From Somniosus microcephalus (taxonomy: Eukaryota): a stretch of DNA of 64,000 bases. Below are positions 20,167 to 47,294 of the stretch, in pieces (position 1 is the stretch's first letter; each line of letters begins with the position of its first letter). The stretch covers positions 46,314,001 to 46,378,000 of the forward strand of contig CM126207.1 of assembly GCA_052327205.1 (NCBI GenBank). Direction: 5' to 3'. Below the pieces are notes generated by a model, which had not been told where the DNA came from, made no database searches, and saw only the letters and a program-made list of their open reading frames with translations. Made by a program: the position numbers and the translations under genes.

Positions 20167-23100
20167 TCTGGGGAAAATATCAACTCCAAGCTCTGGGAAA
20201 AAATATCAACTCCAAGCTCTGGGGGAAATATCAACTCTAAGCTCTGGGGGAAAATATCAACTCCAAGCTCTGGGGAAAAATACCAACTCCAAGCTCTGGG
20301 AAAAATATCAACGCCAAGCTCTGGGGAAAAATATCAACTCCAAGCTCTGGGGGAAAATATCAACTCTAAGCTCTGGGGGAAAATATCAACTCCAAGCTCT
20401 GGGGAAAAATACCAACTCCAAGCTCTGGGGGAAATATCAACGCCAAGCTCTGGGGGAAATATCAACACCAAGCTCTGGGGAAAAAATATCAACTCCAAGC
20501 TCTGGGGGGAAATATCAACTCTAAGCTCTGGGGAAAAAATATCAACTCCAAGCTCTGGGGGAAATATCAACGCCAAGCTCTGGGGGGAAATATCAACTCT
20601 AAGCTCTGGGGAAAAATACCAACTCCAAGCTCTGGGAAAAATATCAACGCCAAGCTCTGGGGAAAAATATCAACTCCAAGCTCTGGGGAAAAATACCAAC
20701 TCCAAGCTCTGGGAAAAATATCAACGCCAAGCTCTGGGGAAAAATATCAACTCCAAGCTCTGGGGGAAATATCAACTCCAAGCTCTGGGGAAAAAATATC
20801 AACTCCAAGCTCTGGGGGAAATATCAACTCCAAGCTCTCGGGGGAAATATCAACTCTAAGCTCTGGGGGAAAATATCAACTCCAAGCTCTGGGGAAAAAA
20901 TATCAACTCCAAGCTCTGGGGGGAAATATCAACTCTAAGCTCTGGGGGAAAATATCAACTCCAAGCTCTGGGGAAAAATACCAACTCCAAGCTCTGGGAA
21001 AAATATCAACGCCAAGCTCTGGGGAAAAATATCAACTCCAAGCTCTGGGAAAAAATATCAACTCCAAGCTCTGGGGGGAAATATCAACTCCAAGCTCTGG
21101 GGAAAAAGCTCTGGGGAAAAATATCAACTCCAAGCGCTGAGGGGAAATATCAACTCTAAGCTCTGGGGAAAAATACCAACTCCAAGCTCTGGGGGAAATA
21201 TCAACGCCAAGCTCTGGGGGAAATATCAACGCCAAGCTCTGGGGGAAATATCAACTCCAAGCTCTGGGGGAAAATATCAACTCTAAGCTCTGGGGGAAAA
21301 TATCAACTCTAAGCTCTGGGGGAAATATCAACTCTAAGCTCTGGGGGAAAATATCAACTCCAAGCTCTGGGGGAAATATCAACTCCAAGCTCTGGGGGAA
21401 ATATCAACTCCAAGCTCTGGGGAAAAATATCAACACCAAGCTCTAGGAAAAAATATCAACTCCAAGCTCTGGGGGGAAATATCAACTCTAAGCTCTGGGG
21501 GAAAATATCAACTCCAAGCTCTGGGGAAAATATCAACTCCAAGCTCTGGGAAAAATATCAACGCCAAGCTCTGGGGAAAAATATCAACTCCAAGCTCTGG
21601 GAAAAAATATCAACTCCAAGCTCTGGGGAAAAAGCTCTGGGGAAAAATATCAACTCCAAGCTCTGAGGGGAAATATCAACTCTAAGCTCTGGGGAAAAAT
21701 ATCAACTCCAAGCTCTGGGGGGAAATATCAACGCCAAGCTCTGGGGAAAAATATCAACTCCAAGCTCTGGGGGAAAATATCAACTCCAAGCTCTGGGGGA
21801 AATATCAACTCCAAGCTCTGGGGGAAATATCAACTCCAAGCTCTGGGGAAAAATATCAACTCCAAGCTCTGGGGAAAAATATCAACTCCAAGCTCTGGGG
21901 GAAAATATCAACTCCAAGCTCTGGGGGAAATATCAACTCCAAGCTCTGGGGGAAAATATCAACACCAAGCTCTAGGGGAAATATCAACTCCAAGCTCTGG
22001 GAAAAAATATCAACTCCAAGCTCTGGGGGGAAATATCAACTCTAAGCTTTGGGGGAAAATATCAACTCCAAGCTCTGGGGAAAAATACCAACTCCAAGCT
22101 CTGGGAAAAATATCAACGCCAAGCTCTGGGGAAAAATATCAACTCCAAGCTCTGGGAAAAAATATCAACTCCAAGCTCTAGGGGAAATATCAACTCCAAG
22201 CTCTGGGAAAAAATATCAACTCCAAGCTCTGGGGGGAAATATCAACTCTAAGCTCTGGGGGAAAATATCAACTCCAAGCTCTGGGGAAAAATACCAACTC
22301 CAAGCTCTGAGGGGAAATATCAACTCCAAGCTCTGGGGGAAATATCAACTCCAAGCTCTGGGGAAAAATATCAACACCAAGCTCTAGGGGAAATATCAAC
22401 TCCAAGCTTTGGGGAAAAATATCAACTCCAAGCTCTGAGGGGAAATATCAACTCTAAGCTCTGGGGAAAAATATCAACTCCAAGCTCTGGGGGGAAATAT
22501 CAACGCCAAGCTCTGGGGAAAAATATCAACTCCAAGCTCTGGGGGAAAATATCAACTCCAAGCTCTGGGGGAAATATCAACTCCAAGCTCTGGGGGAAAT
22601 ATCAACTCCAAGCTCTGGGGAAAAATATCAACTCCAAGCTCTGGGGGAAATATCAACTCCAAGCTCTGGGGGAAATATCAACTCCAAGCTCTGGGGAAAA
22701 TATCAACTCTAAGCTCTGGGGAAAAATATCAACTCCAAGCTCTGGGGAAAAATATCAACTCCAAGCTCTGGGGAAAAATATCAACTCCAAGCTCTGGGGA
22801 AAAATATCAACTCCAAGCTCTGGGGGAAATATCAACGCCAAGCTCTGGGGGAAAATATCAACTCCAAGCTCTGGGGGAAATATCAACTCCAAGCTCTGGG
22901 GAAAAATATCAACTCCAAGCTCTGGGGAAAAATATCAACTCCAAGCTCTGGAGGAAAATATCAACTCCAAGCTCTGGGGAAAATATCAACTCCAAGCTCT
23001 GGGGGGAAATATCAACTCTAAGCTCTGGGGGAAAATATCAACTCTAAGCTCTGGGGGGAAATATCAACTCCAAGCTCTGGGGAAAATATCAACTCCAAGC

Positions 23101-23229
23101 TCTGGGGGGAAATATCAACTCCAAGCTCTGGGGAAAATATCAACTCCAAGCTCTGGGGAAAATATCAACTCCAAGCTCTGGGGAAAATATCAACTCCAAG
23201 CTCTGGGGAAAATATCAACTCCAAGCTCA
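20167..23229. repeat. Minisatellite, ~25-27-bp unit G(3-6)A(3-6)TATCAACTCCAAGCTCT, roughly 115-120 copies
   Basis: Directly visible tandem array; variants CTCT/CGCC/CACC and TACC; no unique spacers. Confidence 0.98.
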
Positions 23230-24333: not shown

Positions 24334-24417
24334 TTGAAGTATGACACAAACAGACATGGTTTTAATATTTAGTAGTTGATCTCCAGTGGCTTGGCTCACA
24401 GTTAAGTCAGAGGATAT

Positions 24418-24912
24418 GGGGGGGAAAATTCGGTGGTTGCTTTGCGCCTCCCATTAGCGCCCTCGCTAATGGGGCGCAAAGCAACTAGCACCCGGGCGCG
24501 GCACTGCCAACGCCTCCCGCGAAATTCAGCGGGAGGTTAGTGGCGGCGGTAACCGTCAGCGCCCCGTGGCGCTGCGCCGCCGGCGACGACGTCATCGCCG
24601 TGCGCAGAGCCCTGCTCGCGATCTTCGGTAGCGCCCCCTGACTTACTGCCAGACACTATGTCCGATGGGGTCATTTGGGCCTACCTGCAGCCGGGGCGGC
24701 GCTAATTAAAGGCGAGGATGCTGGCCGCCCGCCAGTACCTGCCCCCGTTGCCAACCCCGGCCTCCTCTGCAGACCCCCCCCCCGCCTCCCGCAGAGTGCC
24801 GGTTACGCTCCTTGAGCCCGGCACTTCTCCTGAGTGCCGGGCTCTTTTGCTAAAAGTAGCGTCCCGGCGAAGTTAGTGCCCCAAAGGGGGCGCAACTCAA
24901 TTTTTCCCCCCC
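24418..24912. mobile_element. GC/CpG-rich Harbinger-type MITE (young)
   Basis: TIRs GGGGGGGAAAATTCGGTGGTTGC / GCAACTCAATTTTTCCCCCCC; probable TSD ATG; many intact CpGs and repeated agcgccc motifs. Confidence 0.75.
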
Positions 24913-26550: not shown

Positions 26551-27803
26551 CTATGCAAATCTGGCCAGGATGAGTGCATCCCTTGCATCACGGGCAGCCA
26601 TGTGCTCGCCTACTGCGGCTGCTGCTGGTCGATAGACTGGCGCTTGGTCCTCCTCCTGCTCCTCCTCCTCCTCAGCCTCCTCATCCTCCTCCTCTTCCTC
26701 CTCCTCATCTGATGAGGCATGGAACTGAGCCACTTGCTCATCAAGAAGCTGCAAGCCACAACGCTGTGCCATGTTGTGCAGTGCACAGCAGACCACGACC
26801 ATTCTGGAGACCCTGTATGGTGTATACTGCAGGGCTCCACCTGATCGGTCAAGGCATCGGAAGCACATCTTCAACAACCCAATGGTTTGCTCGATGGTGG
26901 ACCTGGTTGAAGTGTGGCTGGCATTGTAGCGCTCTTCAGCCTCGTTAGCTGGCCTCCTGATCGGCGTCATTAGCCACTTCTTCAGTGGGTAGCCTTTGTC
27001 ACCAAGGAGCCATCCGTTAAGTTGGTTTGGTGGATTGAAAAGCGGAGGAACACTAGAGTTCCGCAGGATTGGGAACTACCACAGAACTTGGCACAAATAT
27101 GCAAAAACTCCTTCTTGTGGTTACACACCAGCTGTATGTTGAAGGAGTGGAAGCCCTTGCAGTTGACAAAGATAGCTGATTTGTGATGGGGTGCCCTAAG
27201 GGCCACATGTGTGTAGTCTATGATGCCTTGCACCATTGGCAAGCCTGCCATATTTGCAAAGCCAACCGAATGTGTGGTTATACTTGCTTGATCCCTTGAG
27301 AAGTGGATGTAATTGTGCGGCTTTGCGAAAAGGGCATCGGTAACTTGGGTGATGCAACTGTGGGCGGCCGACTGGGAGATGCCGCTGATGTCTGCTGAGA
27401 ATCCCTGGAAGGAGCCTGAGGCAAAAAAGTTGAGTGCGGTGGTGACTTTGACAGCCACTGGTAAGGGGTGTCCACCCGTTCCTCTGGGCACCAGGTCTTG
27501 CTGCAGCAGTCCGCAGATCTCTCGGACAACCTCTCACGAAAGGCTCAGCCTCCTTTGGCACTGCTGCTCACTCATTTTGAGGTAGCTCATCCTCTGTCTG
27601 TAAACCCTCTGTTGGGGGTATCTCCTGCAGCGAGGTGCCTCGATGCACTGGCACCTTCTGCCCTGTGCAGCATCAGGTGGCTGAGCAGGAGGTTGGGGCT
27701 CCTCCTGCTGCTGCTGCTGCTGAGCTGCCTGGTTCTGCTGCTGCCGTGGATGCTCCTCATCCAAATCTGAGGTCCATGGTGAAAGGAAATGAATGGTTCC
27801 CAT
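26551..27803 (-). pseudogene. Harbinger DDE transposase (HARBI1-family), disrupted
   Basis: Motifs [121 protein letters not shown]. In-frame TGA at 27534-27536 and a frameshifting deletion at ~27070. Confidence 0.93.
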
Positions 27804-29104
27804 GCCGCTTGCAGATGTCTCCATTGGGGAAGCGCTTATTCCAAGCGGGGAGAGGGTCTTCCAAGGAGGTCCCACAGTTGACAGATAGAAGCTGCAGCAC
27901 CTCCGACTTCGGAAGGCCTGCTAAAAGTGCTGAAAGACCTTTTAAAGCAAAGTTCTGCTACCTGCAACTAATCCCTGATGAAAGCGCCGTTTTAATGGTG
28001 GAGCTGCAGCTGTGAAGAGGCCACCCACTTGTCAACCCGCCAGGTTTAGCTGGCGTGGTTTAGGAGGGTTGTGGAACACGCTGAAAATGTCGAAAAATAA
28101 CGAGGGCCTCTCAAAATAGGCTTAGAGAGGCCCTTAACGAGCATTTAAGGCACTTAATAGGCTCTCTGGCCTGCTGGAGGTGGGACCGTTTCCCACCCTG
28201 CAAATCCGGCACTGCCAAAATTGCGCGGAGGCGGGTTCCGAACCCGCACTCCTTTTTTCCAATTTTCCCACCTTTCCCGCCTCCAAACACGCTTCCTCGG
28301 GGCTGAGAAAATCGCCCCTGTTGTCTCAGCTAGGAAAACTGAGTCGCAGCTTAATATAATAAATAGGAAAATTGAAGCGCGACAGAAAATCGTAACAGAA
28401 ATAGCATGACAAAATTCATGTTACAGAACATAATCAGAGGAAAACTGTTAGAACAAGTGTGACACTTGCAAGAAGCGCATGTTAAGTATTACTAGTGGAT
28501 CACCTATGGCATTGCTCTTGGGAAGTCTGGATATGTGTTCGCTTTCTCCTACCTATGTCTGTTGTCTTCTTGTAACAGGGAGTGGGGAGCATTAGTGAGT
28601 GTTTCCCTTTTCTTCTGCCTCTTTCCCTTGCATTCCCTCCTTTCTGGTTTTCTGTCTGTGTGCTGTTCTGCTTTTGACTCTGCATTTCCCCCACACCATG
28701 AGGATAACAATATGTAACAGTAATGTCCAAAAAAAGTGAGTCTTATTTGGTGAATCTATATTGACCATATGAGCGCAGTATCTATTCATTTTCTTTCTTC
28801 TTCATTAGTTAAGTGTTTTTTTAGTCTCATTGTTTTTCTACTTTGTAATAAGTTATTTTCTATTTTTGCTAGCTCACCAATTATATTACAGCACAAAAAT
28901 TCTCTCCAAGCATATTGCAAAACACAAAATTTCTAACATGCTGCTGCCATAATTGTTGCTCACCCACCTGACTATATACGCCTAAAAGTAACATTTATAC
29001 ATTTGCATTTCCATCTTCCAATCTTTCCAACAAGTTTCCCTTCCCTTTATATGCAAAGCCCAACACATCCTACTAGGCCTGATCAATAACCTTGACTAGG
29101 TTCT

Positions 29105-29660
29105 GCTATAGGCTCAAATAAGCTGTTTCGTTATCAGAGGAGTTGCAAATGGAGCTAAATGCTGTAGGATTGTCAGCGAATAGCCCTACTCCTTACCTTA
29201 TGACAGAGGGAAGGTCAGAGATGCAGCAGCTAAAGATGATTGGGCTGAGAAAGGTTCCCTAAGGAGCTCCTGCACTGATGTCCTGTGGTTACAATGATTA
29301 GACTTTGAAAAGCACAACCATCTTCCTGTGTAGTATGACTCTAGCCACTGGAGGGTTTTCCCTTTGACCTCAGTTTTTGGGTTCCTTGGTGCCATACTCA
29401 AGTCAAATGCTGCTTTGATGTCAAGGACAGTTACTCTCACCTCTCCTCTGCCATTCACGTCTTGTGTCTATGTCTAGATCAAGGCTGTGATGATGTAGGA
29501 AGTTGAGTGGTTCTGGCAGACCTCATGTTGAGCCTCGGTGAGTATTTGCTGCTTCATTGCACTATTGATGATGACTTCCATCACTTTGCTGATGATAGGG
29601 AGGAGGCTGAAAGCGTGGTAATAGGCTAGAGTTAGATTTGTCCTGGTCTTTTCTGATGCC
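29105..29660 (-). mobile_element. LINE reverse-transcriptase fragment (CR1/Crack group)
   Basis: SLLPIISKVMEVIINSAMKQ and GEVRVTVLDIKAAFD..., GKTLQWLESY RT motifs on the minus strand, frameshifted. Confidence 0.75.
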
Positions 29661-32600
29661 ACGATTTAGGAGCACTGGAGAGAGGGACAGCAATACAGAA
29701 GGAAGATGTTGAGATGTTGCTGTACTGGCAATGGGGATATTTTGGGGTTTGACAGCAATGCAGCATGGACTGTGGGGTTTAACAGCACTGAGGAGATGGA
29801 GATCTTGGTATTGGCAGCATTGGAGAGGAGGGAAATTATGGATTTTGTAGCACTTGGGGAGAGCAGCAGTGGGGAACAGGGAGATCTTGGGGTTTTGTAT
29901 TGTGATCTAGCTGACAGGTGCATAATTAAGTCATACATAAACAATAGTTGTTTACAACTTAGTATAAAAATGAAAGCACAGGTGCTGTAAATCATTTGCC
30001 TTTGTCCTTTTTGGAGCTAGCTGCTCTAAATAAAAACAGTTGATAGTTTTGATGTGAAATATTTACTCAAAAAAGCTTCTTAAATTAATCTTCCAGCTTG
30101 TTTTGAACTTATTTGGAAAAATAAACTCTCATACTATTCTAACCTGCGTAAAGGCATGCTTCAACATATCTACTGAGAAAAATGAATCCGTTTTCTGTAA
30201 ACAATAATTGTTTACAATTTCTCAATATAAAGAAAAGAAAGTGTGTGTATTGTAATCACTCCATTTCTTTCTCACTTTCTCTCAAGTAAAAGTTTGATAG
30301 TTTAAATTTGAGACCTGACCTGAGCTTTTAAAATTCACTCGGCAGCTTGTTGTCAAATAATACGGGAAAACAAACTCAGAAGTCTTGTTACAGTATGAGA
30401 AAAGATGCATTTCCACTGAGAGCCATACTAATGGTTTCTGGGAAAATCGCCACACCGCACATTCTCAAATTGTGACATCCTGGGAAGTAAAAGCACAAGT
30501 GTAGTCTTGGCTCCCTTCAGCTGTCAGATTGATGGTTTGGGGAAAAATAGCAACTGCAAACCCAAGCTTTTGACAGAGGCCAAGGCATCCAAATTAAAAA
30601 CCTTAATGACGGCACTCAAATATACAAAAGGCAATTTTTTAGGTCAGTTTAATCTTGTTATTGTGAAATATGTATTTTTTTTTTAGTTAGAAACTTTCCC
30701 GACCTCCTCAGTTCTAATTTGTTCCTGTTTTACTTTGAGCTAATCAAGTATGATGCCTAAATGTGACACACAGGAAGTATCAATTTTTTAAGTATAGATA
30801 GCTATATATTAAATATACTTAACTACCAGTAGATACCCTGTGGTGTTACTCGTGGTGTGTCAGAGGATTTTTATAACAGTAGGGATGTTATGTTATGCAA
30901 TGCACAATTTATTATCAGGGCCATTGATTTACAGGGACTATATAAGTCATTCTTTTTTTCTTGCATGAGATTTGATATTTTTACTGGTGGTTTGGGGAAC
31001 AAATTTTAGAACTCTGGCCATTTTTCCATGAAATCTATGTCAGTGGCCTTGATTATTATTACATGTTCCTTCCCCTAGGTATTTAATTTTTAGCTCTCAC
31101 CTTGTTTAAAGTCCAGGATACACACGAAGATGTAGGCAATATGCAGCAGATTGGAGGTAGACCTGTGGTGTTTAGCTGTAATGGGGAGATGGAATTAAAG
31201 AATTTTGTAGCATTAATATTGTTTTTTGGGATGTGGTAGTGTTGGGGTGGTTCTGGGTACTGCAAAGGGAAACCTGGGTTTGGTAGCACTGGGGAAGGGT
31301 GGAATGTGGAGATTGGCTTATGGAATCATTCCTGTTGGCTGTCAGGAATGGATGGGTTATCCCAGTGTTTGGCAGAACTATATTGCAACAATGATTGCCA
31401 AATCTATGGACATTGGCGAAATACCGATTTCTGTCAGCACTGTTGTCCCAGAATATGGCAGCACTTTGGAGGATGTGGAAATCTGGAGCACTGAAATAAG
31501 GATGAAGTTCCATCAGTATTGGGGGCAGGAGTCACTGTCTGGAAACACTGGGGACTAGCGGTCTATGGGCATTGCAGGGAAGTACGAATGTCTGGGAACA
31601 TTCGAGGGAGGTACTAGGGGCAGAAGGTCCCAGGATGTTAATGCACTGGGAGGTTGACAGAGTAGGTAGCATTGGGTGGGGGGCGGGGGTGGGGAGTCTG
31701 GTTATTCAGGAGACTGAGCAATAGGGTTTTAGAACCAGGAGAGGGTCCTTTTTAGTACTGAAGAGGGAGTGATCAGTCTGATGGCACTAGAAGGAGGAGG
31801 GCTCATGGTCTGGCAGAATGTGACTCAATTTGTGTGTGTCTCTTTCTCTATATCAGTCTGTCTTTCTGTTACTCTTTCCCTCTCTCTCAATTTCTTTCTG
31901 TCAGATGTTAGCTTGGGGTTCCAGAATGAAGCTGATTTTTAAGTGCAAAATCCACTGTTATTGCATTTGCTGATTGCTTTTTAGTATACAGTTGACAAAT
32001 ACAGTATTTTGAGTAGTTTTGTGCTTAAAACTGGCTTTAGGCTGGGACTTAGACTGACACCTCAGGATCTTGTGGGAATTGTGAAGACACAAGGAAGCAG
32101 AGAGTTACAGAAAGGCAAGAAGAAATAGTAAGCAAGAGAGTCAAGATATAAACAGATATATAGAGATGACAATGAGAGAAAGTGCATGAGAAGCATACAG
32201 AGAGCAAAAGAGGAAGACAGAAAGAGTGAAAAACAAACAGAGGGAGGTAGGGAGAAAGAAAGAATGAATGAGAGAGTACAAGACCAGCAGAAACATAATT
32301 TTGCAAAGAGGCAGACACAATATTGTTTAGTCAATGAGCAATGCCAAAGGAAATCAACTGGTATTTAATGAAGAGATAGCATATGTAACAACACTGTAGA
32401 AGTGCATGTACACTGCTGCTCACTAACACAGGCATCAGGCACTGTGGGGTTAATTTCATAACACAGAAACGGTTTGGAGATACCAGTTTATGGTTACGCA
32501 TCAACTAATGAATCCTTATATAACCACCCCTTGAGACCACCACTGGGAGATGCCATCATTTGGATGTGTTCTAGTGAGTTTGCAATGAGTCTGGGGGATA

Positions 32601-35600
32601 TTATACTACACTTATGGGAGCGGATCTATAAAAACCACAGCAGAGCACCATTGCCAGAAAATTCAATGAAATGGTGTGTGAGACACAATCCTTTGTAGGT
32701 GACTCATGACCCAAGTTCTGACATGAGTCAAAAGCCCAGCCTAAGCAAAATGAACAGCTAAAAGAGAACATTTTCAGGAGTGAATGTAATCATGGTTACC
32801 AAGGGAAAAACCTCTCTAAACAGTTACAGCGATCTGTGAGCTACTTTGTATGAGAGAAAATAAGAAATCTCTCTAGTATGGCAATGTTGTCTAAAGCTAG
32901 TTTTACATGAAATGAGTGCCGTCGACTACAGATGTTCAGCTCTGTTGTCTTCAACTTCACTCTGTAGTAAAAACGACTCGACCTCTAGAGATCCAAAAGT
33001 ATTGGAACTCCACATTTTCACGGATCTTGCAAGCTGTTGTTGGGCTATAGTTAAAATTAACAGTGGCTCATCAACCCTGGAAAAGCAAGTTTTACACTCA
33101 CTAACCGGTATGGACCTTTCCCAGACATTTAGATAGTCAGATATTTAGTCAGAACGATGACTTCAGAATAGCTATGCAGTAAAAACATGGCAGTTTCTAC
33201 AGCAATCCGGACTCAGTTAGTATTTCAGAGCCACTTCACGCAATGGTCCTGCAGTATGAATGAGCTATAGATAGTTGTGTGACAAAGTCCAGCTCAAGTC
33301 ATTAAAAAAAACTGAATCCAGTATAACAGGAGACTAAACTTGTAATGAGACGCATCCACAATATTACTGGAAAGAGACAGCTGCTGACAGCAGGGACTAA
33401 AACATACCTACAGTTGGATGCCTTGCAGCCTCAATGTGTGGACAGCCAGAATGCTGGCAGATGCTGTATGCATCATTTACATTAGCTGAAAGTTTTTTTT
33501 TTAAAGAGTTGATGACCTATTGGGTTCTTCTCCCTTTCCCCGCTCCCATGGGCTTGGTGTCATCTGGTCTTACTGTGTAAAATTTGCATGAAATACATTT
33601 ATAAATCAAACTTGTCTTTTCTCCTCTTTTGTTCAAAGAAATGCTAGTTTCCTATCTCTGTTCCTAGTTTGTTTGTGAATCAGTTGTGAAATTCAACAAC
33701 TTGTATTTAAAAGTTTGAGACAAAGCACTGGACACTGGAATGCAACCAAAGTCACGGCTTGTCTGACAGCTGATGGAAGGCGATTCTGGAATGGTCCAGG
33801 CAAAGGCCCTTTTTTCTTTCCTGACGTGCATTACCATACTCAGCTGACATGCTGACAGCGGCATTGCTCCATATCCTCTCTCTTTTTTTGGAGAATGAAT
33901 GGCAGGGGAAATTCCTGATTAACTCCACAATATAGTGGCTGGCCTGTGGCAGCAAATTCCTGATGACAAGGATGTGGCCATTCAGCTGTAGAAAATCGTA
34001 GCACTGACCTCAAACTGCTTTCACAAGCAGATGTTTACCTGATAACTTCAATTTAAGTTTCAAATAAATTTCTTCATTGATTTTGGTATTTGCTTCTTAA
34101 AAGATAAACACACTCTTTGCAAAGTATGTCTTTCTTGGACAGTTTTATAAATTACTCTCAACACTTAATTAGAGTGGATGAGAGGGATGCCTCATTTCTC
34201 TTTGTTATAAATTAAGCTTTCAGTAATCCTAAACAAAAAGCTGAAATCTGGAAGCTATAGGATTTGGTAGCAGGATTATGGTCTCTCAGATAATGATGTG
34301 CAGTCAGCAGAACCAAAGCTGTATTTTAATTCAAATCAGCTGGTAAACAAACCATTGACATGTTTGTGGATGACAGCAACTGAGTCCCGTGGAAGTGTCT
34401 TAACAGCAAAATTATTATTATTTTTTCTGTCAAAGACAACTACTGAATAATAGACATGTCCCTTACTCCACATGGTACTGCATCCATTCTGCTTTTATGT
34501 AGGATGCTAGTAATGATACAGCCCTTCGTATTGTTCAATTAACCCTTTCCTGGCTCCAGTAGCTTTGGTTTCTGCAAAGGATGGGAACATGAGAAGTGCT
34601 CAGCTTCTTCCATGCCCCATTTTGTTCAATGAATAATGTATATTGTTGTACAGATCCATACGTTCCTCCAATTCTAAGTATATAATCAGTCTTCAACATT
34701 CAGTGAATGTCCCTCACTGCTAGATGAAAGTTCAGTGCTCAAATTGTGCTAAGCCATTACATTTCTGATCTTAAGGTTTTCTAATGAATTGGCTATAGTT
34801 TGTAAAATCTCTCTTTTATCCTAACTACGTGTTTTCAATTTCTAATATGTGTTTACCAGGTTGTGTAGTAAACAGCATTTGTCTGAATGAGAAGTGGTAA
34901 ACATATTCAGAATTCTGAAGTAGCATGAATGCATACTGATTATCTTTTTGGAAGATGCATTGTGTCTGATTACTTTGGTTTACAAGGTCATTGCACTCTC
35001 AATTGTTGGAGTGAATAAACACTATTGTTCAGGGCAAGCAATTCTTTATACCTTCTCAAGACACAAAAGCAATTTGTCATTATCAAAGAATAATTGTTGC
35101 TTTTGCTTTTTTGATATGTTTGAGTGTTTGCTAGCTAAGCAAGGAAAACATGTATAGTGCAGAAATTAAGAAGTCAGTGGTGTTGCTGCTATCAATTTTT
35201 TTACAAAAGGGTTTCAATAATGTTGTGTACTTTGAAGAACTAACAGTAAAGGGTGCTTGGTCAGAAATTTACAGTGAAATCAAAATGCAAAACACAATTT
35301 TAAAAATGTTTTAGATGTACTCATTCCGCACAGGACTATTTTCTAAAAACATGCCTGTCGATGTAATACTAAAGTTGGTTAGTTGAAGTGTTATCTTAAT
35401 AAAGATCCATATTCCATTTCCAAATCTCATAGTGTTGACATAAGTTCATGTTACTGGTAATTAACTTTGGTGGTACATCTAAGGCTTATGTAACTTTATA
35501 AGTATGCTACATTTTGTGGTTTACTGTTATTAAACTTTAATTCTCATAAAACTTCAGAGTCCATATACATCAGTCAAATTGAAGTTCATACATTTAAGAG

Positions 35601-35744
35601 TAAAATGAATTGTAATATATACAGAACTACAAATAAAACCCAATCAACTATAAAACAGGTTTATATTACTCATTTTGTTCATAACTATTAATGTATTTGT
35701 GTTATTATACTGTATTAAAGTCAATAATGTAAACTTTTTTAATG

Positions 35745-36420
35745 TTCTTTGCCTCCAATTTTCTCCCCTTCCTTCTTCAGAAACTTCAGTGCAGTACTGA
35801 GGGATTGCTGTACTACCGAAGGTGCCGTCTTTTGGATGAGATATTAAACTGAGGCTCCATCTGCCCTTGCAGGTGGCCGTAAAAGATCCCATGGCACTAT
35901 TCAAAGATGAGCATGTGTGTTCTCCAGTGTCCTGGCCAAAATTTATCCCTCAACCAACATAACCAAAGCAGATTAACTTGTCAATCATCTCCCTGCTGTT
36001 TGTGGGACCTTGCTGTTTGCAAATGGTTACTGCAGCTCCCTACATTACAACAGTGACTTCACTTCAAAAGTACTTAATTGGCTGTGAAGCTCTTTGGGAC
36101 ATCCTGGGGTCATGAAAGGTACTATAGAAATCCAATTTCTTTCTTTCCTTTTTTATCCTCACATGAAGGCACTGAAGGTACAGTACTACCGGTGCTGACC
36201 ACCGTCTGGTACATCACCCAAGTGACCATTCTTCATGTGTAAGCATAGATGGGAAGCATCAGCAAGCTATTTGATGGGGGGCATCACAGCAAAGCCTGAC
36301 CCTGTCTTCACCTGACATTTACGCACATGCCTTTTACAGCTGGAGGTCACTGAATAGCAATTAGAAAAGAGAACCCTGGCTGATTTGTTCCACTCCCCAA
36401 CCTCGGGCACTAAGGTCACT
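35745..36420 (-). mobile_element. AmnSINE2-like SINE split by a SacSINE1-like insertion
   Basis: Tail ccaattttctcccc at 35754; body resumes at ~36160 (tgaaggcactga...cccaagtgaccattcttcatgtgt...gcatcacagc..agcctgaccctgtc...gaaccctggctgattt). Confidence 0.65.
35785..36150 (+). mobile_element. Deu-domain SINE (SacSINE1-like)
   Basis: cagtgcagtactgaggg...aaagatcccatggcactattc...tgctgtttgtgggaccttgctgt...aaaggtactatagaaat followed by (TTTC)n. Confidence 0.8.
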
Positions 36421-38481
36421 ACTGGAAAATGTATGATATTGTTAATTTATTTAAATTTAGTACTGTTAAATGCAACAAGATTGAAGTAAAAATCCAAATG
36501 GCCAATTTTGTCCCAGTGACTCGTACCACCAAGTTTCTCAGACAGTATCTAAGCGGAGAGCTTGGTCTTTAGTAGTTAGTTGTTTTAAATAAAATGTGAG
36601 CAATTATTTGAAGGTGCAGCAGAGATTAACTACACCACTGAGTGCATTAAGGCACTTTAGTGGAGTTAAGTGTTTTGTTAGACAGCGATGTAATTTATTG
36701 AAGTGCATGGACAAACTTTCTATGAACTTTTCTCACTATCTGGGTTTATGTCTGTTGAAAAGCAAAAAAGCTTTGCTATTCATGGCTTCAGGTGTTCCCT
36801 CATCTGGAGCAGATTGCTTGCAGCATGGTGGTGAACCTAAAGCATTATTTGGACCTTAATCCCCTCCAAACCGGAAGGAGAAGGATTTATAGGGATCAGC
36901 AAAGCTTTGGATTCTGATTCCTCAAATTCAGAATTAATCGAAACTGTCAGTACAGAAAAGAAACTCAACTAAAAAAGATGACGATTTTTTAAAAAAATAG
37001 AAAAATGGGAAAAACAAGTACCATTAAAACCAATGAGAAGCTGCAGTGTGACCAACCAGCTACCAGAGATCAGCAGTGCACACCACCAGGGAGTGGAGCA
37101 TTCTGCACTTTATAAACCTGAAACAAGTGTAAACAAAGTTTGTTAAACAGCTTGTGAAACAGATCATTGATTTTGGTTCCTGGAGGCGCGTTACCCTTAG
37201 ATCACTAGGTCACAACCAAGACTTGCAGACAAAAACTCCAGATCACCACAGAGATTGAATACACATGTATATAGACCACCATGGCGATCAGGTGAACAAA
37301 TGGCACTAGACCACCAGGAAGACTGGGTACAAACATACCCAGTGGATTGTTGGGGGGGTTTGGATATTTGTGTAACACTGTTGCTCCCTGTCAGCTCCTA
37401 TTATGAGAAGCTCACAATTAGGCATGGTGATGTGCTTCCCTTTGGCTTGTTAGCGGGCAACATGACACCTTACACCATACATGGGCAGAAGGAGATAATG
37501 TGGTGTTGCACTTTGCAGCGCAGATAAAGACAAACAAAATGGCAGCATTTATTTTGAGATTGGTGTGGCACTCTCTGTTAATCTATGATCATCTATCTGT
37601 GCCATCTGAGTGACTTAAAAGTGCACCATCTGGAGCCTTCCTGAAGGCTCAATGGGACAATTTTTGCATAAGGTAGTCTGTTTACAAATGTAGAATTGAC
37701 ACTGGGTTGCCCTCACTCAGTACATCTCGCAGGCTGCTAGAAAAAGAATCCAACAGTCAGTGAACCTATAGACTGTTGGCAGGTCCAGGGAAATGATAGG
37801 CTCCCTGAACTGGTCAGTTTTTTAAGTTTTTAGCACTCATACTGTGATGTTGAAACAAGTGTTAATGTTACAGCAATAAAGTTGTTAAAATTTCAGGAGT
37901 AGCTTTAGTATTGCAATATTCAGGAAAACTATTCGGGTGCCATTGCTAGTGGCACTGGAGCAGAACAGACGCTGGGGGGAGGTTGTCAGATAATCAGGCA
38001 GAGATCGATCTCACTGGATCTGCATCAATTCCCTACCACCTACAAACTTTTAATTGGGTCTTGAGACAGGCAATAGACAGATCTAGCACCCAAAACTGGG
38101 CAATAACTACAACCCTGCCAATGGTCGCCCACATCCCAAGAACAACTTTAAAAAATTTTAAATTCTTATCATCATCCCTTCTTGTCTTTGCCCCACCCTA
38201 TCTTTGCAATCTCCTTCAGCCCGCTATACCCTCCCAAACACACCATTCCTCAGTCTGGTCTTCTGCTTAGCCTTCTCCTTTCACCCCAGCATGGCAGGCT
38301 TTTCAGCCAACTTCGTCCTAGACTCTGGAACTCTGTAAATCTATCCAGGACATTTCTTTAGGTTAAAAGTGACTTGTTGTAATCCCTATGGCTCAGCTGC
38401 ACATCAGGCATTGCATTGCACTAAACCATTGAAATATGAGTTACAGTACTTCCAACTTTGAAAACTTACAAATGATTTATT

Positions 38482-39245
38482 GGGCAGGATTTTGCTCTCA
38501 TCATGAACGAACGGCGCCAGCCGTTCATTACACTTGTACTTGCCTGCAGACTTTCTATGGGATTTTGCACTGGAATTTACTCTAATTAGAAAGCCATTTC
38601 AGCGCAACACCCTCTACAGGGGATCTGGGACCTGTGTGAACAGGGCAAGCAACTGTGTATCTCCTTAACCAATCAGATTGAAGAGTTGTTGCTGAGCCAT
38701 GCAGAGTCTGAATTAGGAAGTGTAAGTTAGAATATTTAATTTAATGTCAAATCAGGTACAGAAAGTGAAATAAAGAAAGGTGGGATTGCGAGAGAGAGAC
38801 AAAAGAGACACAGATAATTTTTTTTTAATAATTTAAATTTGTTTTTTAAAATCTCCAACAATAATTAACATCTGAAGTAATGAGATTCCACACTTGTAAA
38901 AGTTAATTTTCAGTACCAGAGAGGTTATTTGCAGTAATTAAGACTTATCACGCCATTAAAAATGTACTTACACTGGAATAGACAAGCCCTAACTTTTTCT
39001 GGTGAGTTTAGTGGGTATCTATCACGTAAGTACAGCAACTTCACGCCCTTCTATGTGTTTCAATGCCGAGTCTCTGGGCGAGATACAGCACTGCTTTTGG
39101 AGGAGCAAAGCAACTCGGACAGCAACTTCTTGATTTCTGCGTTTAATTGCACATGTGCAGTCGCTATAGGTTGCTTTCCGATTTACACTTTAATAATGAT
39201 GAGCACTATTAGCCTCACTGTTATTTCTACAGCAAAATCTTGCTC
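38482..39245 (+). mobile_element. Harbinger-type MITE family A, copy 3
   Basis: TIRs GGGCAGGATTTTGCT / AGCAAAATCTTGCTC; TSD ATT/ATT; collinear with 998-1751. Confidence 0.85.
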
Positions 39246-40599
39246 ATTGAATGTTTACCAAACTGAATTTTAGTAAAAAGAAATTGACGAGTCGTTTCCC
39301 TTCTTCAGACTGTTGAGCCATGATTATACAAAGAATTGATGTTAGATCCCTCCTTCACTATATCAAACCTGTTCAGCCAGATTAATAGTGTTTCCCAATT
39401 ATACCCAATACGTTCAATAGAGAAGTTCAATATTGAATTTTTGCTGGTTTAAAAATGTATTGATGTAGTATTTTACCTTTTTTTTGATTAAAATGTAAAT
39501 GACAACACCTGACAGCAGGTAAAGAAGGGATTGTTACAATGTGGGTTTGGGAGGCGAGTTTAAGCAGAACAGAGGATGTGCCAGGTGCCGATGAGCTGTT
39601 TCACTATTGCACTGCCAGGTTATATTGGCATTTGTCCAAATTGGTGCCATCGTGAATCCAACCCCAGAAGTCTGTTTATTTTTTCCGAGCTACAGTTTGG
39701 CACCTGTGATTCAGGTTGATTATACTGGATATCAGAGGTCGTATTGAGGTCAGTTCAGTGCCAAACCAATCTCCATGTGTCATTTTAACCATGGTATTAG
39801 TCCCTTTGGAAACCAGCTTTAAATGGGTCTGTATGTGTGCAAAAAATACTGAAATGTAACCTGGGCAATGAAGCACTTTTATTAAAGTTCAGTGGAGCCC
39901 CTGTGCTTTTTATGGTTGGATTTATTTGATTAACAATAAATCTTGTTGACTTGTGTTATCAGCACCAGTGTTTAGAGAGGTTCATTTTTAAAAAAATTTA
40001 AAGACAGCAAGTTGTAAGTAAATTATGCCTCAATAGATTTACAGTGGCATTTATGTTTTTGTACTTTATTTCTTGCTATAACACTTAGCATTCAAAAAAC
40101 AACCCTTCTAAAAAACCTTCTCTATCAATGTTCTCTTTGTGGGGCCAGTTTTGTAAGCATCACTGACTTTTCCAGTGTATTTGTTGTGAGGACATGGCTG
40201 GGTAATTGAGCTGAGGGTAAAAGGGTTACTAGTCACTGGCTTTGATACCATCGCTCTGTCTTATTGCTACTATCCTTGGAACTTCTAACATGTGTTCAAT
40301 GTTTTTATTTTATTTGCATTTAGTAAATGATAAAATAACTCTTTTATGGGGACAGAGTTGTGCCAAGTGTGTCAATCATCGTCATGCCACTGCTATAGCT
40401 CACTTGGCTAGTGTGAGACAGTTCTTTGGTCCTTTTATTGAATGGTCTTTATTATGTTAAAGGTGCTATATAAATACAAGTTATTGTTGTTCATCATTGC
40501 ACCTGTCTTGGCCTCTCGGTGCCCAACTGTCCCCCTGTTCTATATTTGGCATTGGGTGCAGTTTATGTTGACCTATTACTATTACTACTGCTGCTATCA

Positions 40600-40880
40600 C
40601 CATTTGTGGAAGAGGTTACAGAGAAAGAGAAGGGCGTGGCCATGAAGGGACTTAAGGACGAGGATGAGAATTTTAAATTTCAGGTACTGGGTAACTGGGA
40701 GCTCATGAAGGTCAGCAAGGACAGGGGTGCTAGGTGAGCAGGACTTGCTATGGGATAAGACTGGGGCAGCAGAGTTTTTGATGAGTTAAAGTTTATGGAG
40801 GGTGGAGAATGGGAGGGTTGGCCTGGAGAATATGAGGATAGTGAAGTCTGGAGGTGAGAAAGGCATAGATTTCAACATCA
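40600..40880 (-). mobile_element. Diverged L2 fragment
   Basis: Collinear with 43060-43330 (ggccatg.aggga...gatgag.attttaaa...ggcagcagagtttt.gatga). Confidence 0.7.
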
Positions 40881-40954
40881 GACCACAGTGTAAATTTGAA
40901 AGTTTAAATGTAGATTAGAAAAGTTTAGTGAAACTCATGTGTAACATTAACACT

Positions 40955-41090
40955 AAAAGAAAATACTGCAGATGCTGGAAATCAGAAATAAAAACAGAAA
41001 ATGCTGGAGATACTCAGCAGGTCAGGCAGCATCTGTGAAGAGAGAAAAAGAGTTAACGTTTCAGGTCAATGACCTTTCGTCAGAACTGGG
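40955..41090 (-). mobile_element. Penelope-like element pseudo-LTR fragment
   Basis: aaatactgcagatgctggaaatc...aatgctggagatactcagcaggtcaggcagcatctgtg...gagttaacgtttcaggtc, a very common elasmobranch Penelope terminal repeat (recalled); contains a hammerhead core. Confidence 0.75.
41051..41087 (-). ncRNA. Minimal type I hammerhead ribozyme motif
   Basis: Minus strand reads AGUU-CUGACGA-A-AGGUC(AUU)GACCU-GAAA-CGUU-AACU: stem I AGUU/AACU, both core boxes, a 5-bp stem II, a palindromic minimal stem III (ACGU), and cleavage triplet GUU. Confidence 0.7.
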
Positions 41091-41123
41091 ATCACTAACT
41101 GGATTCTAACATTGTTAGATACT

Positions 41124-42079
41124 GGGGTAGATATTGACTGTAGGCGGGTTTCAGGTGGCCAGCTGGTGAGACGGAAAGCCCAGTCCATTTTGAAGGCAAG
41201 GTCTGGTTAGCATGGGTTTGGCAAGCTGCAGGCTGAAGACAAGCATCTCAGGACAGCCTGCCCAGGTTGGTTTTGTGGAGCCCCTGTCGTGCCAAAAGTA
41301 AATTACAATTTACCTGCTGGGCAGCACTGAGGCTGGAGCACCGGCTGATACTTTGCGGTCTGTGCAAGGCAAAATGATCTACCCAGTACTGTCCTAAAAT
41401 CGTTTTTGGGGTCCTATGTTCATCATATCCTGGGATGAAGGGGTTGACGTATGACAAAACGTTGAGCAGGTTGGGCCTATACTCATTGGAGTTTAGAAGA
41501 ATGAGAGGTGATCTTATTGAAACATATAAGATTCTGAGGGGAATTGACAGGGTAGACACAGAGAGGATGTTTCCCCTAGTGAGGGTATCTAGAACTAGGG
41601 GTATCGTTTCAGAATAAAGGGTCCCCCATTTAAGACGGAGATGAGGAGGAATTTCTTCTCTGAGGGTCGTGCATCTTTGGAATTCTCTACCCCAGAGAGC
41701 TGTGGAGGCGGAGTCATTGAATATATTCATGGCGGAGATTGACAGACATTTGAACTACCAGGGAGTCAAGGGGTACGGGGAGAGAGCGGGAAAGTTGTGT
41801 TGAGGACAAGATTGGATCGGCCATGATCTTATTGAATGGCGGAGCAGGCTCGAGGGGCCGATTGACCTACTCCTGCTCCTGTTTCTTATGTTCTTATGTT
41901 CATATTTGCATATTAAAAGGACCCACCACCTGACTCAGGCAGGCTCTCCAGCTGCCCAGCGTTGGGAAAGAGAGAGATAGTTGCACCACTGGCGGGAATG
42001 ATTACGGAAGTCATACCCCATAATGTTCGGGGCGATACTTCCCTGTTTATGCTGGACAGAAGGCCTCAAAATCTCCCCC
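41124..42079. mobile_element. Harbinger-type MITE containing a nested CR1
   Basis: Ends GGGGTAGATATTGA / TCAAAATCTCCCCC; TSD ACT at 41121-41123 and 42080-42082. Confidence 0.7.
41427..41900 (+). mobile_element. 5'-truncated CR1 LINE
   Basis: MKGLTYDKTLSRLGLYSLEFRRMRGDLIETYKILRGIDRVDTERMFP; tail (TTCTTATG)2. Confidence 0.9.
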
Positions 42080-42716
42080 ACTATTTCAGAAAATGTTCCT
42101 TTTTACAACAAATCACCTCATAGCCACTGTCGGGATCAAAAGAAGTCACAACAAATCACAGACACTGTAACCAGTGGCAACCTGTAACTTGGGGGCTAAT
42201 ACCAAGAAAAGAAGTTTAAAATTAAATACAAACTGTGGGTGTAATTACAGTCTGAACAAGCCCCAAGGAGAGATAATAAAACACAGCAAAAGAATTCTAA
42301 CAATAAATTTGATGTGTGAGATTTTACTTTTTGCTTTTGTTTTCAAAACATCCATAGCTCTTTACTGACAGTTTCAATCAGATTGGTTAGTGTTTACAGG
42401 GTGCTGGCTTCCCACATTTACAATACTGAAATGAGTGACATTAGCCCAATGGACCCATATCATTCTGAATCTACAATACCATGGATTCTCCAGCTGGTTT
42501 TTACACTGTGGAGAGTGCAGCCAACAGAGTGAGAACTACTCATCTTGCTTTGGCTATGGTCCTGTAGGGAGAAAGTGTCTTAGACTAACAGCAAGTAGAA
42601 TAAGTTAAAAAATATTGCACGGAGAAATTACTATATTATTAAGAGTACATTCGTTGAATTAGATATAGGGCATAATGCAATTAAATATTTCATGATATCC
42701 CTGCCAGGCTTCATTG

Positions 42717-43860
42717 CAACAACAACAACAACAGTAACTTGTATTTATATAGCGTCTTTAACGTAGTAAACCATCCCAAGGCACTTCACAGGAGCGTTCT
42801 CAAACCATGTTTGATACCGAGCCACATAAAGAGATATTAGGGCAGATGACCAAAAGCTTGGTTAAAGAGAAAGGTTTTCAGGAGTGTCGTAAAGGAGGAA
42901 AGAGAGGTAGAGAGGTGGAGATGTTTAGGGAGGGAATCTAAGAGCTTAAGGGCTTGGCAGCTGAAGGCACGGCCACCAATGTTGGAGCGATTAAAATCGG
43001 GGATGCTCAAGAGGCCAGAATTGGAGGAGTACAGATATCTGAGGGTTGTAGGGCTGTAGGAGGTTACAGAGATAGGGAGGGGTGAGGCCATGGAGGGATT
43101 TGAAAACAAGGATGAGGATTTTAAAATCGAGGCGTTGCTTAACTGGGAGCCAATGTAGGTCAGCGAGCACAGGGGTAATGGGGGAACAGGACTTGGTGTG
43201 AGTTAAAACATGGGCAGCAGAGTTTTGGATGACCTCGAGTTTTCAGAGGGTAGAATGTGGGAGGCCAGCCAGGAGTGCGTTGGAATAGTCAAGTCTAGAG
43301 ATAACAAAGGCATGGATGAAGGTTTCAGCAGCAGATGAGTGGAGGCAGGGGCGGAATCGGGCGATGTTACGGAGGTGGAAATAGGCAGTCTTAGTGATGG
43401 TTTGCTATGTGGCTGGATGCTCATCTTGGGGTCAAATATGACACCAAAGTTGCGAACAATCTGGTTCAGCCTTGGACAGTTGCCAGGGAGAGAGATGGAG
43501 TCGTGGCTAGGGAACGGAGTTTGTGGTGGGGACTGAAGACAATGGCTTTAGTCTTCCCAATATGTAGTTGGAGGAAATTTCTGCTCATCCAGTACTGAAT
43601 GTCGGACAAGCAATCAGACAATTTAGAGACAGCGGAGTTGTCAAGAGAAAAGGTGGTGAGGTAGAGCTGGGTGTCGTCAGCATTCATGTGGAAACTGACA
43701 CTGTGTTTTCGGATGATGTCACCAAGAGGCAGCATGTAGATTCAAAACAGGAGGGGGCCCAAGGATAGATCCTTGGGGATACCAGAGGTAACGGTGCGGG
43801 AGCAGGAAGAGAAGCCATTGCAAGTGATTCTCTGGCTACGACTGGATAGGTAAGAATGCA
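42717..43860 (-). mobile_element. L2 LINE 3' part (RT C-terminus plus tail)
   Basis: TVTSGIP...LGPLLF, MLPLGDIIRKHSVSFHMNADDTQLY (YADD box), WMSRNFLQL.IGKT, GGRAFS...LP; (CAA)n tail at 42717. Confidence 0.9.
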
Positions 43861-43969
43861 AATGAAATGAAATTGGTTTGTATGGATTCCAAAAAACAAT
43901 TAACCTCCTGGATTTTGTCACTGCCATGTGCAAAGAAAAGCTATGGGATAATATTAAGGCCATTTAGAC

Positions 43970-44620
43970 CAGGGTTTCTCAACCTTTTTGCTTCTGAAGC
44001 CCCCCTCCTGTGTTATAAAAAATCCATGGACCCACCTGTAACACAAAACAAGTATTTTTTCTGTATAAAATTAGTTATACAACTAAACATATATATTTAT
44101 TATTTTTGTTTTACTTACTTAATTATCATGAAGTTGAGACTGAGGTTGGTAGAGTTCTACTTAAGTTAGTAGACTATCACTGAGGTTGATAGAGTTATAC
44201 TGAAGTTAATACACAGTCACGAAGGTTGGTAAAGATTCACTGGAGCCGATGGAGTGCTGATGAGACCGATGGTGTTGAGGGCCGTACCAGCTTTCGCTTC
44301 TCCCCTTGTTGGTTACTAACGAGCTGAGCGGAACGCACCCGCTGAGACTGGACGCCATCTCCTTGGCAACACGGCGGACCAGTGACCATGAGCCTCTGGG
44401 GCCAAGTGACGGTTTCCAGCTCCTCACGATCTGTGTGGGGGGCCGGAGACTAAAGTGTTTCTGTGCTGGTGTTGATCGGTGACTTGTGGGTGAGAGGTGA
44501 AACTTTGTGCCCTGGATACTGCAACTTTCGGGGATCGGCATTACATCAACTTTAAATTGTCTGCGCGTTGGAGACAGGGAGCCACTGGCGGACCCCTTCA
44601 AACCTTCCCGTGGACCCCTG
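43970..44620 (+). mobile_element. hAT (Charlie-like) non-autonomous element
   Basis: Starts CAGGGTTTCTCAACCTTTT and ends GGACCCCTG; 8-bp TSD ATTTAGAC (43962-43969) / CTTTAGAC (44621-44628). Confidence 0.75.
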
Positions 44621-47294
44621 CTTTAGACAGTTCTGCGCTCCTTCACCCAGTACCCAAAACGGTGCTGCAGCTTCCAAACTGCAGCAGCTCAATATGCCAC
44701 CAGCTGGAAATTAGAATGGCCAATCAGAAATTAGCTGGCAGTTTCAATTCTCAGCAAAATACTTGATGTCTGTGACACGACACCGGAGCAAAATGGAGTT
44801 TAGAAGCTAACAGGAACAAACTCATTTCACAGAATATGAATTGTTTATATCAGTCAAATAGTTTTAAAAATATAAAGATGCCATTTTCAGAATGCAGCAA
44901 CATTATCTATCCAGAAGAGTGGAATTATTCACAAACCATAATTTTCAGAAAAAAGTGATTAAAATGTCTAAATTTCACTGAATCCCATGGGACTGCAAGA
45001 ATGCATTAACAGCCTTCAAAGGTGGCAAGAAATATTTACTTAAGTACTCAAATGACTAAAGTACACAGAAGAGGCTCAGTTCCACCGAAGAACATTTTTG
45101 CATGGTTGGAGGAAACCATCTCAAAGCATTTCAACTTAGTCCCTGAAGAGGAAACCTTAGTCTCAGAGTCCCAACAGACTGGTAAGTATAATTTTTGTCT
45201 CTCGTAAATAATCACTCAGGTACAATAACTATAATTGAAAACAGTGGGCATAATGCATACGTTAAGAAGTATAATAATAACAGATTGAAAAGTAATGAGA
45301 AAATAAGTAAATCAGTGATGAGAAAAGGCCATTTAGCCTATTAAAGCTCTTCCTTACAGTAACTAACTCTTCCCTTATGGCATCTAATTTTATATTAATA
45401 GGAAAATGTATTGCACTTTTCAGAATGCAATTTTTAAATATTCAAGAGCTCTGTGAAATAAATTATATCCTTTTTGTCTCCACAGAGAAGCTATTTTCGT
45501 CTAGCTCGATTGCATTCATCCAGAAAGTCATACCCAAAGTTCAGGACAGAAACAAGTCACAGGAAGTTGGGAAATCCACTGGTGAGAAGTCAACAGCCAC
45601 TGCACAGTTGTTAACCCGGAAGGGAGTACATAATATGCTACCCGATGGCTGGAGCTGTATTACCTGTCACCAGATCCACCCAGGATCTTCTCTGAGGTAA
45701 CACAAACATGCAGGAGGGTCCAATGCAGAACTTAAGGTAGCATATCAGCAGCAGAAGGCAACTGCTGACTTTTGGGTCACAACTTCTCCCCTCACAATAT
45801 CTCAGAGCCTTGTAGAGGAGGAATGCCTGCTTCAGCAGGCCATTGACAATCTCTGTCAGTGTGCAATCTGATAACACACTGACATGGTGAGACCAAACAG
45901 TATTATGCAATTGGAGTAGTAACAGTTTGGTCGAATAGACTAGTTCATGTGTAGCAGTCTGCTGTGAAACCAGCCATGCTCCTTTGTATTGCACTAGGAT
46001 ATATCCATTGAAAGCTCTCAGTTTTCTGAAGGCATTTCTTCTGAGGTTAGTATCTACCTTCCTGTAGCTGAGATGGCTCCCTCCAATCCAAAATACCACA
46101 CTGGGATGTATCTTTCAATGGACAGCCCTTCCAAAGCTCAACCATCCATTTCTGAAATCAGTAAATAAAAATAATCAAATATTAGTCCTGTAGTCATGTA
46201 TGTACTACCAAAATTGATTTTACAATATTGTTTTTTCTTCACTGTTCATCTTTGTGTAATGTGTGTGCTAAATTAGTATAGTATTGCAGACATTGGAGTT
46301 ACTATTTTTGTGTATATGATTTAGTCATTTAAGGCTACTATTTTAGACAATTAATTAGACATTACATTTATGCTCAATATTGATATTTTGCAGCCTGTAA
46401 TATTTTCTAGCTGTTGAAGTAAAAGCCAATTATTTTTCTCATTTATGCATTCAGTGTCATCTTTGCCCACTCGACACAAATCTTTCAGCCCCATTTTATA
46501 ATTAGAGTTGATTCTTCAATATGTTGTCTGTTCACCATCCTGGATGTAACCAGATTGTTCAGTCACATGTGACATTCTTTTGCTTTCCAGGTCCTCTTCT
46601 CATGCATATATTAATGTTGAGGGTGTTTTGGCTTGTGCCAGTTCAAACCGTGCTATTAGGCATATTTAACATGTTAGTATCAACATAGTGTTTGAAAAAT
46701 TGCACTCAAGTTAATATGTTTTAATGTTGTGCCAATTTATTTTTTGATGCTCTTAATTAATCATCAAACCCACTCCTTCCGCAGAGTTTCTATACTTTGC
46801 CCTCAAGATATTTAACTCATTTATTAATCTCTTAATGAATAACCAGATGTACAACTTTGAAAAAGATAGAACTGTGAAATTTCTCACTAACCCAAAGTAA
46901 TCTTAAGTGACTCAGAGATATCAAACATTACAACCTTCAGTCAATTGACCAGTTGCATTCCACAATTGACTATTTAATTGCCCCAGCAGCATACAGCTAT
47001 CATGTTCTGTCAAGTACTTGATCATCTTAGCTTGTTCTTATCCTTATAACTTTTTATCCAATTCTTAACCTGATATTTAGCCAGCTCTTTTTTTATGGGG
47101 AATAACATTCTAATTTCTAATTTTCCTTGGGGAGTGTTAAGAAGGAAAGGCTAGGAGGAATGCTTTATGTGAAAAATAGCCCCCTCGTATCTTTAAAAAG
47201 TCTACATATAAAACAGTATTTACTACCTTCTATAGCATATTTTAATTGTTACCAATTATTTTAGCTCCCATGGAGACCCACCATTAGATAAAAT

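Follow-up and report, generated by a model that had tools for sequence, protein, structure and literature searches.

Cervera and De la Pena (2014, PMC4209133) described minimal hammerhead ribozymes in metazoan Penelope-like elements. In that paper a single motif from S. mansoni shows no cleavage in vitro, and there as well as in a review such motifs of other species are given as cleaving weakly as dimers and not at all as monomers. The PAc motif of the anole requires the element's own protein according to Frangieh et al. 2024 (PMC11167929), and the role of Penelope hammerheads is called still open in PMC8557442. A study of non-LTR retrozymes (10.64898/2026.07.22.740005) includes one chondrichthyan. 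Sharks go unnamed in the text of PMC4209133 and in the single supplementary file that gave matches, and a literature search, with most subscription papers outside its reach, found no paper on hammerheads of shark Penelope-like elements or on a pile-up of their 5' ends.

The motif analysed here is of the kind already published in PMC4209133, and the copy in the window (the whole stretch of 64,000 nucleotides of Somniosus microcephalus DNA that we analysed) is a further example. We give a probability of about 0.85 to the reading that a Penelope-like element carries it in its terminal repeat as a minimal type I hammerhead, and that the window copy is a short truncated stub which is likely inert, because no partner motif, poor folding and no host exon were found for it.

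The motif and its parent element

The motif covers 37 nt on the minus strand (41051..41087), and its letters agree exactly with those of the earlier note. Stem I consists of 4 bp (41087-41084 with 41054-41051) and is followed by the first core box CUGACGA (C3-U4-G5-A6-C7-G8-A9, 41077..41083), an additional A separating position 9 from 10.1 (41076), stem II with 5 bp, a 3-nt loop and an A10.1-U11.1 closing pair (41075-41063), the GAAA box (41062-41059) and CGUU with its GUU triplet (41058-41055). The type I core CUGANGA ... GAAA ... UH is intact and both stems are paired, while a palindromic ACGU at 15.2-16.2, (near-)invariant in the subfamily alignment, stands in place of stem III; in all these points the earlier description proved right. 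Following standard hammerhead numbering we take the predicted cut to lie between 41055 and 41054, and all positions are counted from there (-1 = 41055, +1 = 41054).

The two-box pattern matches once in the window against a mean of 0.01 after shuffling, and the full descriptor with both stems matches in 5 of 200 Markov-simulated windows. Rfam yielded no hammerhead, neither by E-value on 39000-43000 nor at the gathering threshold on the whole window, presumably because its models expect a stem III and loops that are absent here. The proposed check by covariance models thus found nothing.

A solo stub of 138 bp (40952..41089, minus strand; start at -35) carries the motif at its 5' edge; it is made up of the hammerhead, the 3' part of a pseudo-LTR and a tail. 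At 133 of its 138 bases the stub is identical to the upstream pseudo-LTR of L061, a near full-length copy elsewhere. The placement inside a Penelope terminal repeat therefore stands as far as pseudo-LTR identity is concerned; what the window holds is a solo, 5'-truncated end and not an intact element, and neither another piece of the element nor a partner motif of its family is present there. A candidate start ATG lies 23 nt past the cut (41030..41032, minus strand); it is invariant in 24 of 24 alignment rows, and L061 has it in the reading frame of the reverse transcriptase (RT), with one stop between. The optional tail of about 35 nt (40952..40987, minus strand) lies between the two preferred 3' ends of the family, 39 of 95 sampled copies ending at +66 to +75 and 28 at +98 to +111. 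A TTAAC resembling a branch point spans the cut; after it come a pyrimidine tract and CAG, ahead of the ATG (41030-41060, minus strand), and a second pyrimidine tract with CAG is found at 40975-41000 (minus strand). These labels are putative and follow general consensus motifs. Other subfamilies have lost the first CAG and kept the ATG.

Long copies show the order RT, CxxC linker, GIY-YIG, a UTR of about 335 nt, hammerhead and ATG. The RT frame carries a DKG motif, and the linker reads C-x4-C-x2-C in L061, L017 and L023, in line with the CX2-5CxxC linker of Neptune. RT and GIY-YIG, the latter C-terminal, share a single ORF, which is broken by stops or frameshifts in the copies examined. L061 is a partial tandem with both pseudo-LTRs, its two hammerheads lying 3,219 nt apart on either side of the RT/GIY-YIG frames. 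Pfam hits for RT and GIY-YIG are weak (E 1.4e-4 and 5.7e-4, below the curated cut-offs). With the RT stretch as query, 7,991 candidates were scored, and 1,327 of them are relatives at E 1e-20 or better; those with names that score best come from sharks and rays (61-69% identity), and many of the relatives carry RVT_1 and some also GIY-YIG. The same stretch found no match in PDB. The family also shows the pseudo-LTR partial tandem, inverted truncated copies and 30-40-bp tail of EN+ Penelope-like elements. Judged by these sequence features, the host element is an endonuclease-bearing Penelope-like element with a linker of the Neptune/Nematis type.

Family size, covariation and decay

In the genome (6.45 Gb) the pattern CTGANGAN{14,20}GAAACGTY matches 42,208 times against 636 matches of the reversed pattern. 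The 33-mer of the window subfamily has 6,661 exact matches (reversed control 0) and the U3-A8 version of the motif 7,205 (control 0). All these counts are lower bounds, and C3-G8 subfamilies with a 13-nt gap fall outside them. The view of a very abundant elasmobranch repeat is borne out, with both boxes retained in at least 42,208 genome copies and shark or ray proteins as the best named relatives. A chance origin of the motif is ruled out above all by this family size, and a non-Penelope origin by the linkage to RT/GIY-YIG frames together with the family counts. Sister subfamilies, represented by L175, L182-L184, L188, L205 and L207-L212, show a U3-A8 core, a GUC triplet or, at 2.1-1.1 of stem I, C-G, and L052 is a U3-G8 intermediate; the sister subfamilies are all linked to the same endonuclease. 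In addition, a solo stub with a target duplication of about 13 bp was observed inside another repeat of about 1 kb, along with which it has been multiplied (L033:1480-1610, G000:C1:6728339 and many others). The site in that repeat has 4,719 copies, and the stub is present in 8 of 100 among the matches listed.

Covariation was evaluated in 213 copies with a GAAA box near a downstream anchor, a set shaped by the searches that fetched it; the first box could be located in 177. At positions 3/8 these carry C-G (126), U-A (29), U-G (5), C-A (13) or another combination (4), the C-A cases being probably CpG decay. Stem I 2.1/1.1 reads U-A in 131, C-G in 25, U-G in 16 and otherwise in 5 copies, and stem II 10.1/11.1 reads A-U in 86, G-U in 53, G-C in 35 and otherwise in 3. 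Across the 24 alignment rows, which were hand-picked and are related, 99.1% of the cells pair and three pairs change on both sides, against at most 44% for slid controls. The covariation that had been proposed as a check on stems I and II is thus present, as compensatory changes between subfamilies in both stems and in the core pair 3-8. The number of independent events is small. Ten long U3-A8 copies fall within one supported clade of 15 in an endonuclease tree of 41 rows, which is poorly resolved and has five long branches, so that U3-A8 may have a single origin.

Among the copies themselves, the boxes show no excess conservation: 23 of 462 core cells are mismatched against 56 of 1,344 elsewhere (p 0.51), or 12 of 420 against 50 of 1,218 without CpG (p 0.30). 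This comparison used 42 copies picked by a downstream anchor, with 7 of 50 columns set aside (subfamily-diagnostic, N7 or loop). The earlier note had named such a lack of excess, together with absent cleavage, as evidence against the motif, yet the result is uninformative because the masters were selected and dead copies decay; selection shows between subfamilies. From the alignments we infer that the subfamily masters are selected for the fold and that individual copies decay neutrally.

The same copies correct the view that two features of the motif are atypical. The extra A is the family norm (174 of 177 copies) and, in PMC4209133, an extra nucleotide between 9 and 10.1 is listed as one of the four hallmarks of these motifs. 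GUU is likewise the usual triplet of the family (153 of 177 copies, with GUC in 10); a review counts it among the active NUH sites, and one row of the supplementary alignment of PMC4209133 also reads CGUU. By comparison of the sequences, the real departure from the published consensus is A10.1-U11.1 in place of the conserved G-C: in the window subfamily the pair is kept and its identity changed, at a position where G10.1-C11.1 is described in PMC4209133 as a frequent trait outside the descriptor. Folding predictions for the lone monomer give -5.9 kcal/mol for the hammerhead against -9.1 kcal/mol for an alternative helix, with a hammerhead probability of 0.002, and stems I and II reach a pairing probability of no more than 0.16 with 20-nt flanks, falling to about 0.01 when the flanks are 120 nt long. 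Given the departure from G-C and the poor folding of the monomer, the window subfamily may have been a weak ribozyme.

Where the copies begin

To sample the starts of copies we used the first 100 listed matches of one downstream anchor (first 32 Mb of C1), leaving out four tandem or segmental duplicates, one locus-edge match and one further duplicate, and adding one unlisted partner, which gave 95 copies. Forty-one of these start at -40 to -20 (mode -34 to -30, on the 5' strand of stem I) and 3 at -95 to -41, a start rate ratio of 20; the remainder start at -19 to +17 (18 copies) or further upstream (33). With inversions and one internal deletion removed the numbers are 22 against 2 of 69, and the ratio is again 20. 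For a second anchor, which targets other subfamilies, inspection by eye gives about 17 of 100 listed copies starting within this zone, with hardly any immediately upstream of it. Starts at -33 amount to 665 matches genome-wide, a number inflated by a single insertion multiplied inside another repeat (61 of 100 listed rows); after correction about 260 are left against 9 at -44, where the pattern is stricter and the at-risk set is estimated to be about five times smaller. Contig depth in a DNA-sized run likewise steps up at the 5' border of the motif, to which upstream divergence contributes.

Inverted element sequence lies directly upstream in 25 of 62 short copies. Head-to-head inverted pairs of stubs, with junctions in or near the hammerhead, were observed in L019, L021, L024, L048, L084, L116 and L161. 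Among 58 non-inverted copies, 11 carry direct repeats of 9-16 nt at their ends that resemble target-site duplications, and such copies are therefore separate insertions.

These observations can be combined in a working model. In a tandem source transcript two motifs would pair through ACGU, or the element's protein would help one of them to fold, and the RNA would then slowly be cut after GUU, leaving unit-length RNA trimmed; these steps are drawn by analogy from published work on other species. If the motif acts at all, it would do so in transcripts of tandem source elements. Reverse transcription would start about 70 or 105 nt past the cut on uncut RNA and would often stop at the 5' border of the motif, which is most likely the 5' end of the RNA. 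The resulting short cDNAs would integrate independently, in many cases as inverted pairs, and afterwards undergo neutral decay. As cause of the stop we prefer a real RNA end near -33, since a stall at structured RNA should fall on the 3' side of the stems. Somewhat short of even odds, in our judgement, is the more specific proposal that the hammerhead forms the very 5' end of a shark Neptune-type RNA, and that internal reverse transcription running off this end sheds 'strong-stop' cDNAs of about 100-140 bp, combined with a switch of the core pair from C3-G8 via U3-G8 to U3-A8. If true, a transcription start at stem I would explain tens of thousands of solo hammerheads, and cleavage would take off the cap 23 nt ahead of the start codon.

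The strongest competitor explains the pile-up of 5' ends by a 3' splice site; as in Penelope of D. virilis, helix I would be where an intron ends. All subfamilies with native upstream sequence indeed have a pyrimidine tract and YAG right at stem I, the AG of the YAG being that of the 5' strand of stem I (41084..41087, minus strand) in the alignment with long copies. By consensus motifs we take this site to resemble an initiator as well as a splice acceptor. In D. virilis, helix I marks the end of the intron according to PMC4209133; this intron is located in the promoter region. The ends observed here are however ragged (-20 to -40) and do not form a single junction. Upstream of the short copies we find the inverted element mentioned above or unrelated sequence, with only 3 same-strand matches and no shared upstream exon, and no GT..AG is present among the contig joints listed (127 more lie beyond the list). 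Splicing is hence an unlikely source of the boundary, and the end of the RNA itself is preferred.

In a second competing reading, in vivo cleavage of the template by the ribozyme leaves a 3' fragment that is reverse transcribed, so that copies would start exactly at the cut. Starts within -4 to +3 account for 8 of the 95 sampled copies, a hazard of 0.013 per nt against 0.003-0.005 beside it, which is a weak hint in its favour. Genome-wide, starts with two non-matching upstream bases give no peak at the cut (+1 189, +3 254, -2 255); by hand-sorting of 100 listed rows each, true junctions number about 110, 124 and 70, respectively. Starts near the cut make up less than 1% of roughly 47,000 anchored copies. 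At many of the apparent 5' junctions near the cut, the adjoining sequence looks like the end of a single other repeat family that probably inserted later, which confounds any footprint. As a separate observation, about a quarter of the listed rows in one of these counts share a short deletion between two AAC-type microhomologies by which the palindrome and the cut site are lost. In the anole, too, no RNA-seq reads end at the cut according to PMC11167929. Because starts at the cut are not in excess genome-wide, we infer that the inserted copies stem from uncut RNA; a role of cut fragments is improbable and for these subfamilies already largely refuted.

Host effects and comparison with known systems

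The suggestion that the repeat scatters self-cleaving motifs through introns, and hence that dispersed copies act there on host RNA processing, could draw on the intact core of the window copy, the many copies with both boxes, the adjacent inverted partners and the contigs carrying the stub from runs guessed to be RNA; it goes unsupported and is very improbable, as the boxes lack excess conservation among copies, the window has no second copy of the element, inverted partners leave only one motif per RNA strand, the stems are predicted to pair poorly in either flank length, the single S. mansoni motif is inactive in vitro and the anole motif needs its protein (PMC4209133 and PMC11167929), and no host exon was found. 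For the latter, Pfam was run on 128 of 357 unmasked stop-free frames (from the 150 longest) and gave only transposase remnants, and contigs aligned across 28500-46500 (18 kb) covered mainly repeats. The window further contains a tandem array at 20167-23228 (period 26, about 118 copies, with higher-order periods of 51 and 77 nt), broken DDE_Tnp_4 transposase frames at 26554-27533 (minus strand; E 1.5e-19 and 5.2e-6) and a stretch at 24416-24850 that resembles (66-75%) repeats flanking the stub in L033.

Taken alone, the window copy contributes nothing, but its family supplies material for tests. Its masters offer three core pairs and three closing pairs of stem II, a natural mutant-rescue series. 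The sharp boundary of 5' ends at the motif may mark the start of the RNA, and the negative footprint at the cut site agrees with uncut RNA as template.

Among described systems the minimal hammerheads of metazoan Penelope-like elements are among the closest. By the account in PMC4209133, the shark family shares with them the type I topology, the 4-bp stem I, the extra nucleotide between 9 and 10.1, the palindromic 15.2-16.2 without a stem III and a spacing of about 3 kb between the motifs of full elements, as well as mostly solo copies, pairs on opposite strands and the U3-A8 core variant (there in S. mansoni). The trait of families with covariation and compensatory changes is found here too, with few independent events. 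The shark subfamily differs by A10.1-U11.1 instead of G-C and by a stem II of 5 bp. Motif numbers are larger, with at least 42,208 in the shark against about 4,000 in coelacanth and 9,000 in X. tropicalis in the same source, though the descriptors differ.

Non-LTR retrozymes (10.64898/2026.07.22.740005) also carry a type I hammerhead, derived from pseudo-LTRs of Penelope-like elements. They consist of two or more head-to-tail tandem units, each with a hammerhead, whereas the stub is a monomer with the tail of its family, and the window contains a single copy and no tandem array of hammerheads.

PAc, a Poseidon element from Anolis carolinensis (Frangieh et al. 2024, PMC11167929), resembles the shark element in its hammerhead at the junction of pseudo-LTR and ORF, and its two internal starts of reverse transcription about 35 nt apart make a tail like that of the shark. 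Uncut RNA is the dominant template of PAc in vitro, with which our sequence-based reading agrees. Differences concern the CX2-5CxxC linker of Neptune/Nematis, which the shark element has, and the candidate ATG, located 23 nt after the cut in the shark and 26 nt before it in PAc. With the Neptune clade, as described in PMC8557442, the shark element shares the DKG motif, the RT, a Zn-finger-like C-x4-C-x2-C linker and the C-terminal GIY-YIG, along with pseudo-LTR partial tandems, inverted 5'-truncated copies and a tail of 30-40 bp. The linker alone does not separate Neptune from Nematis.
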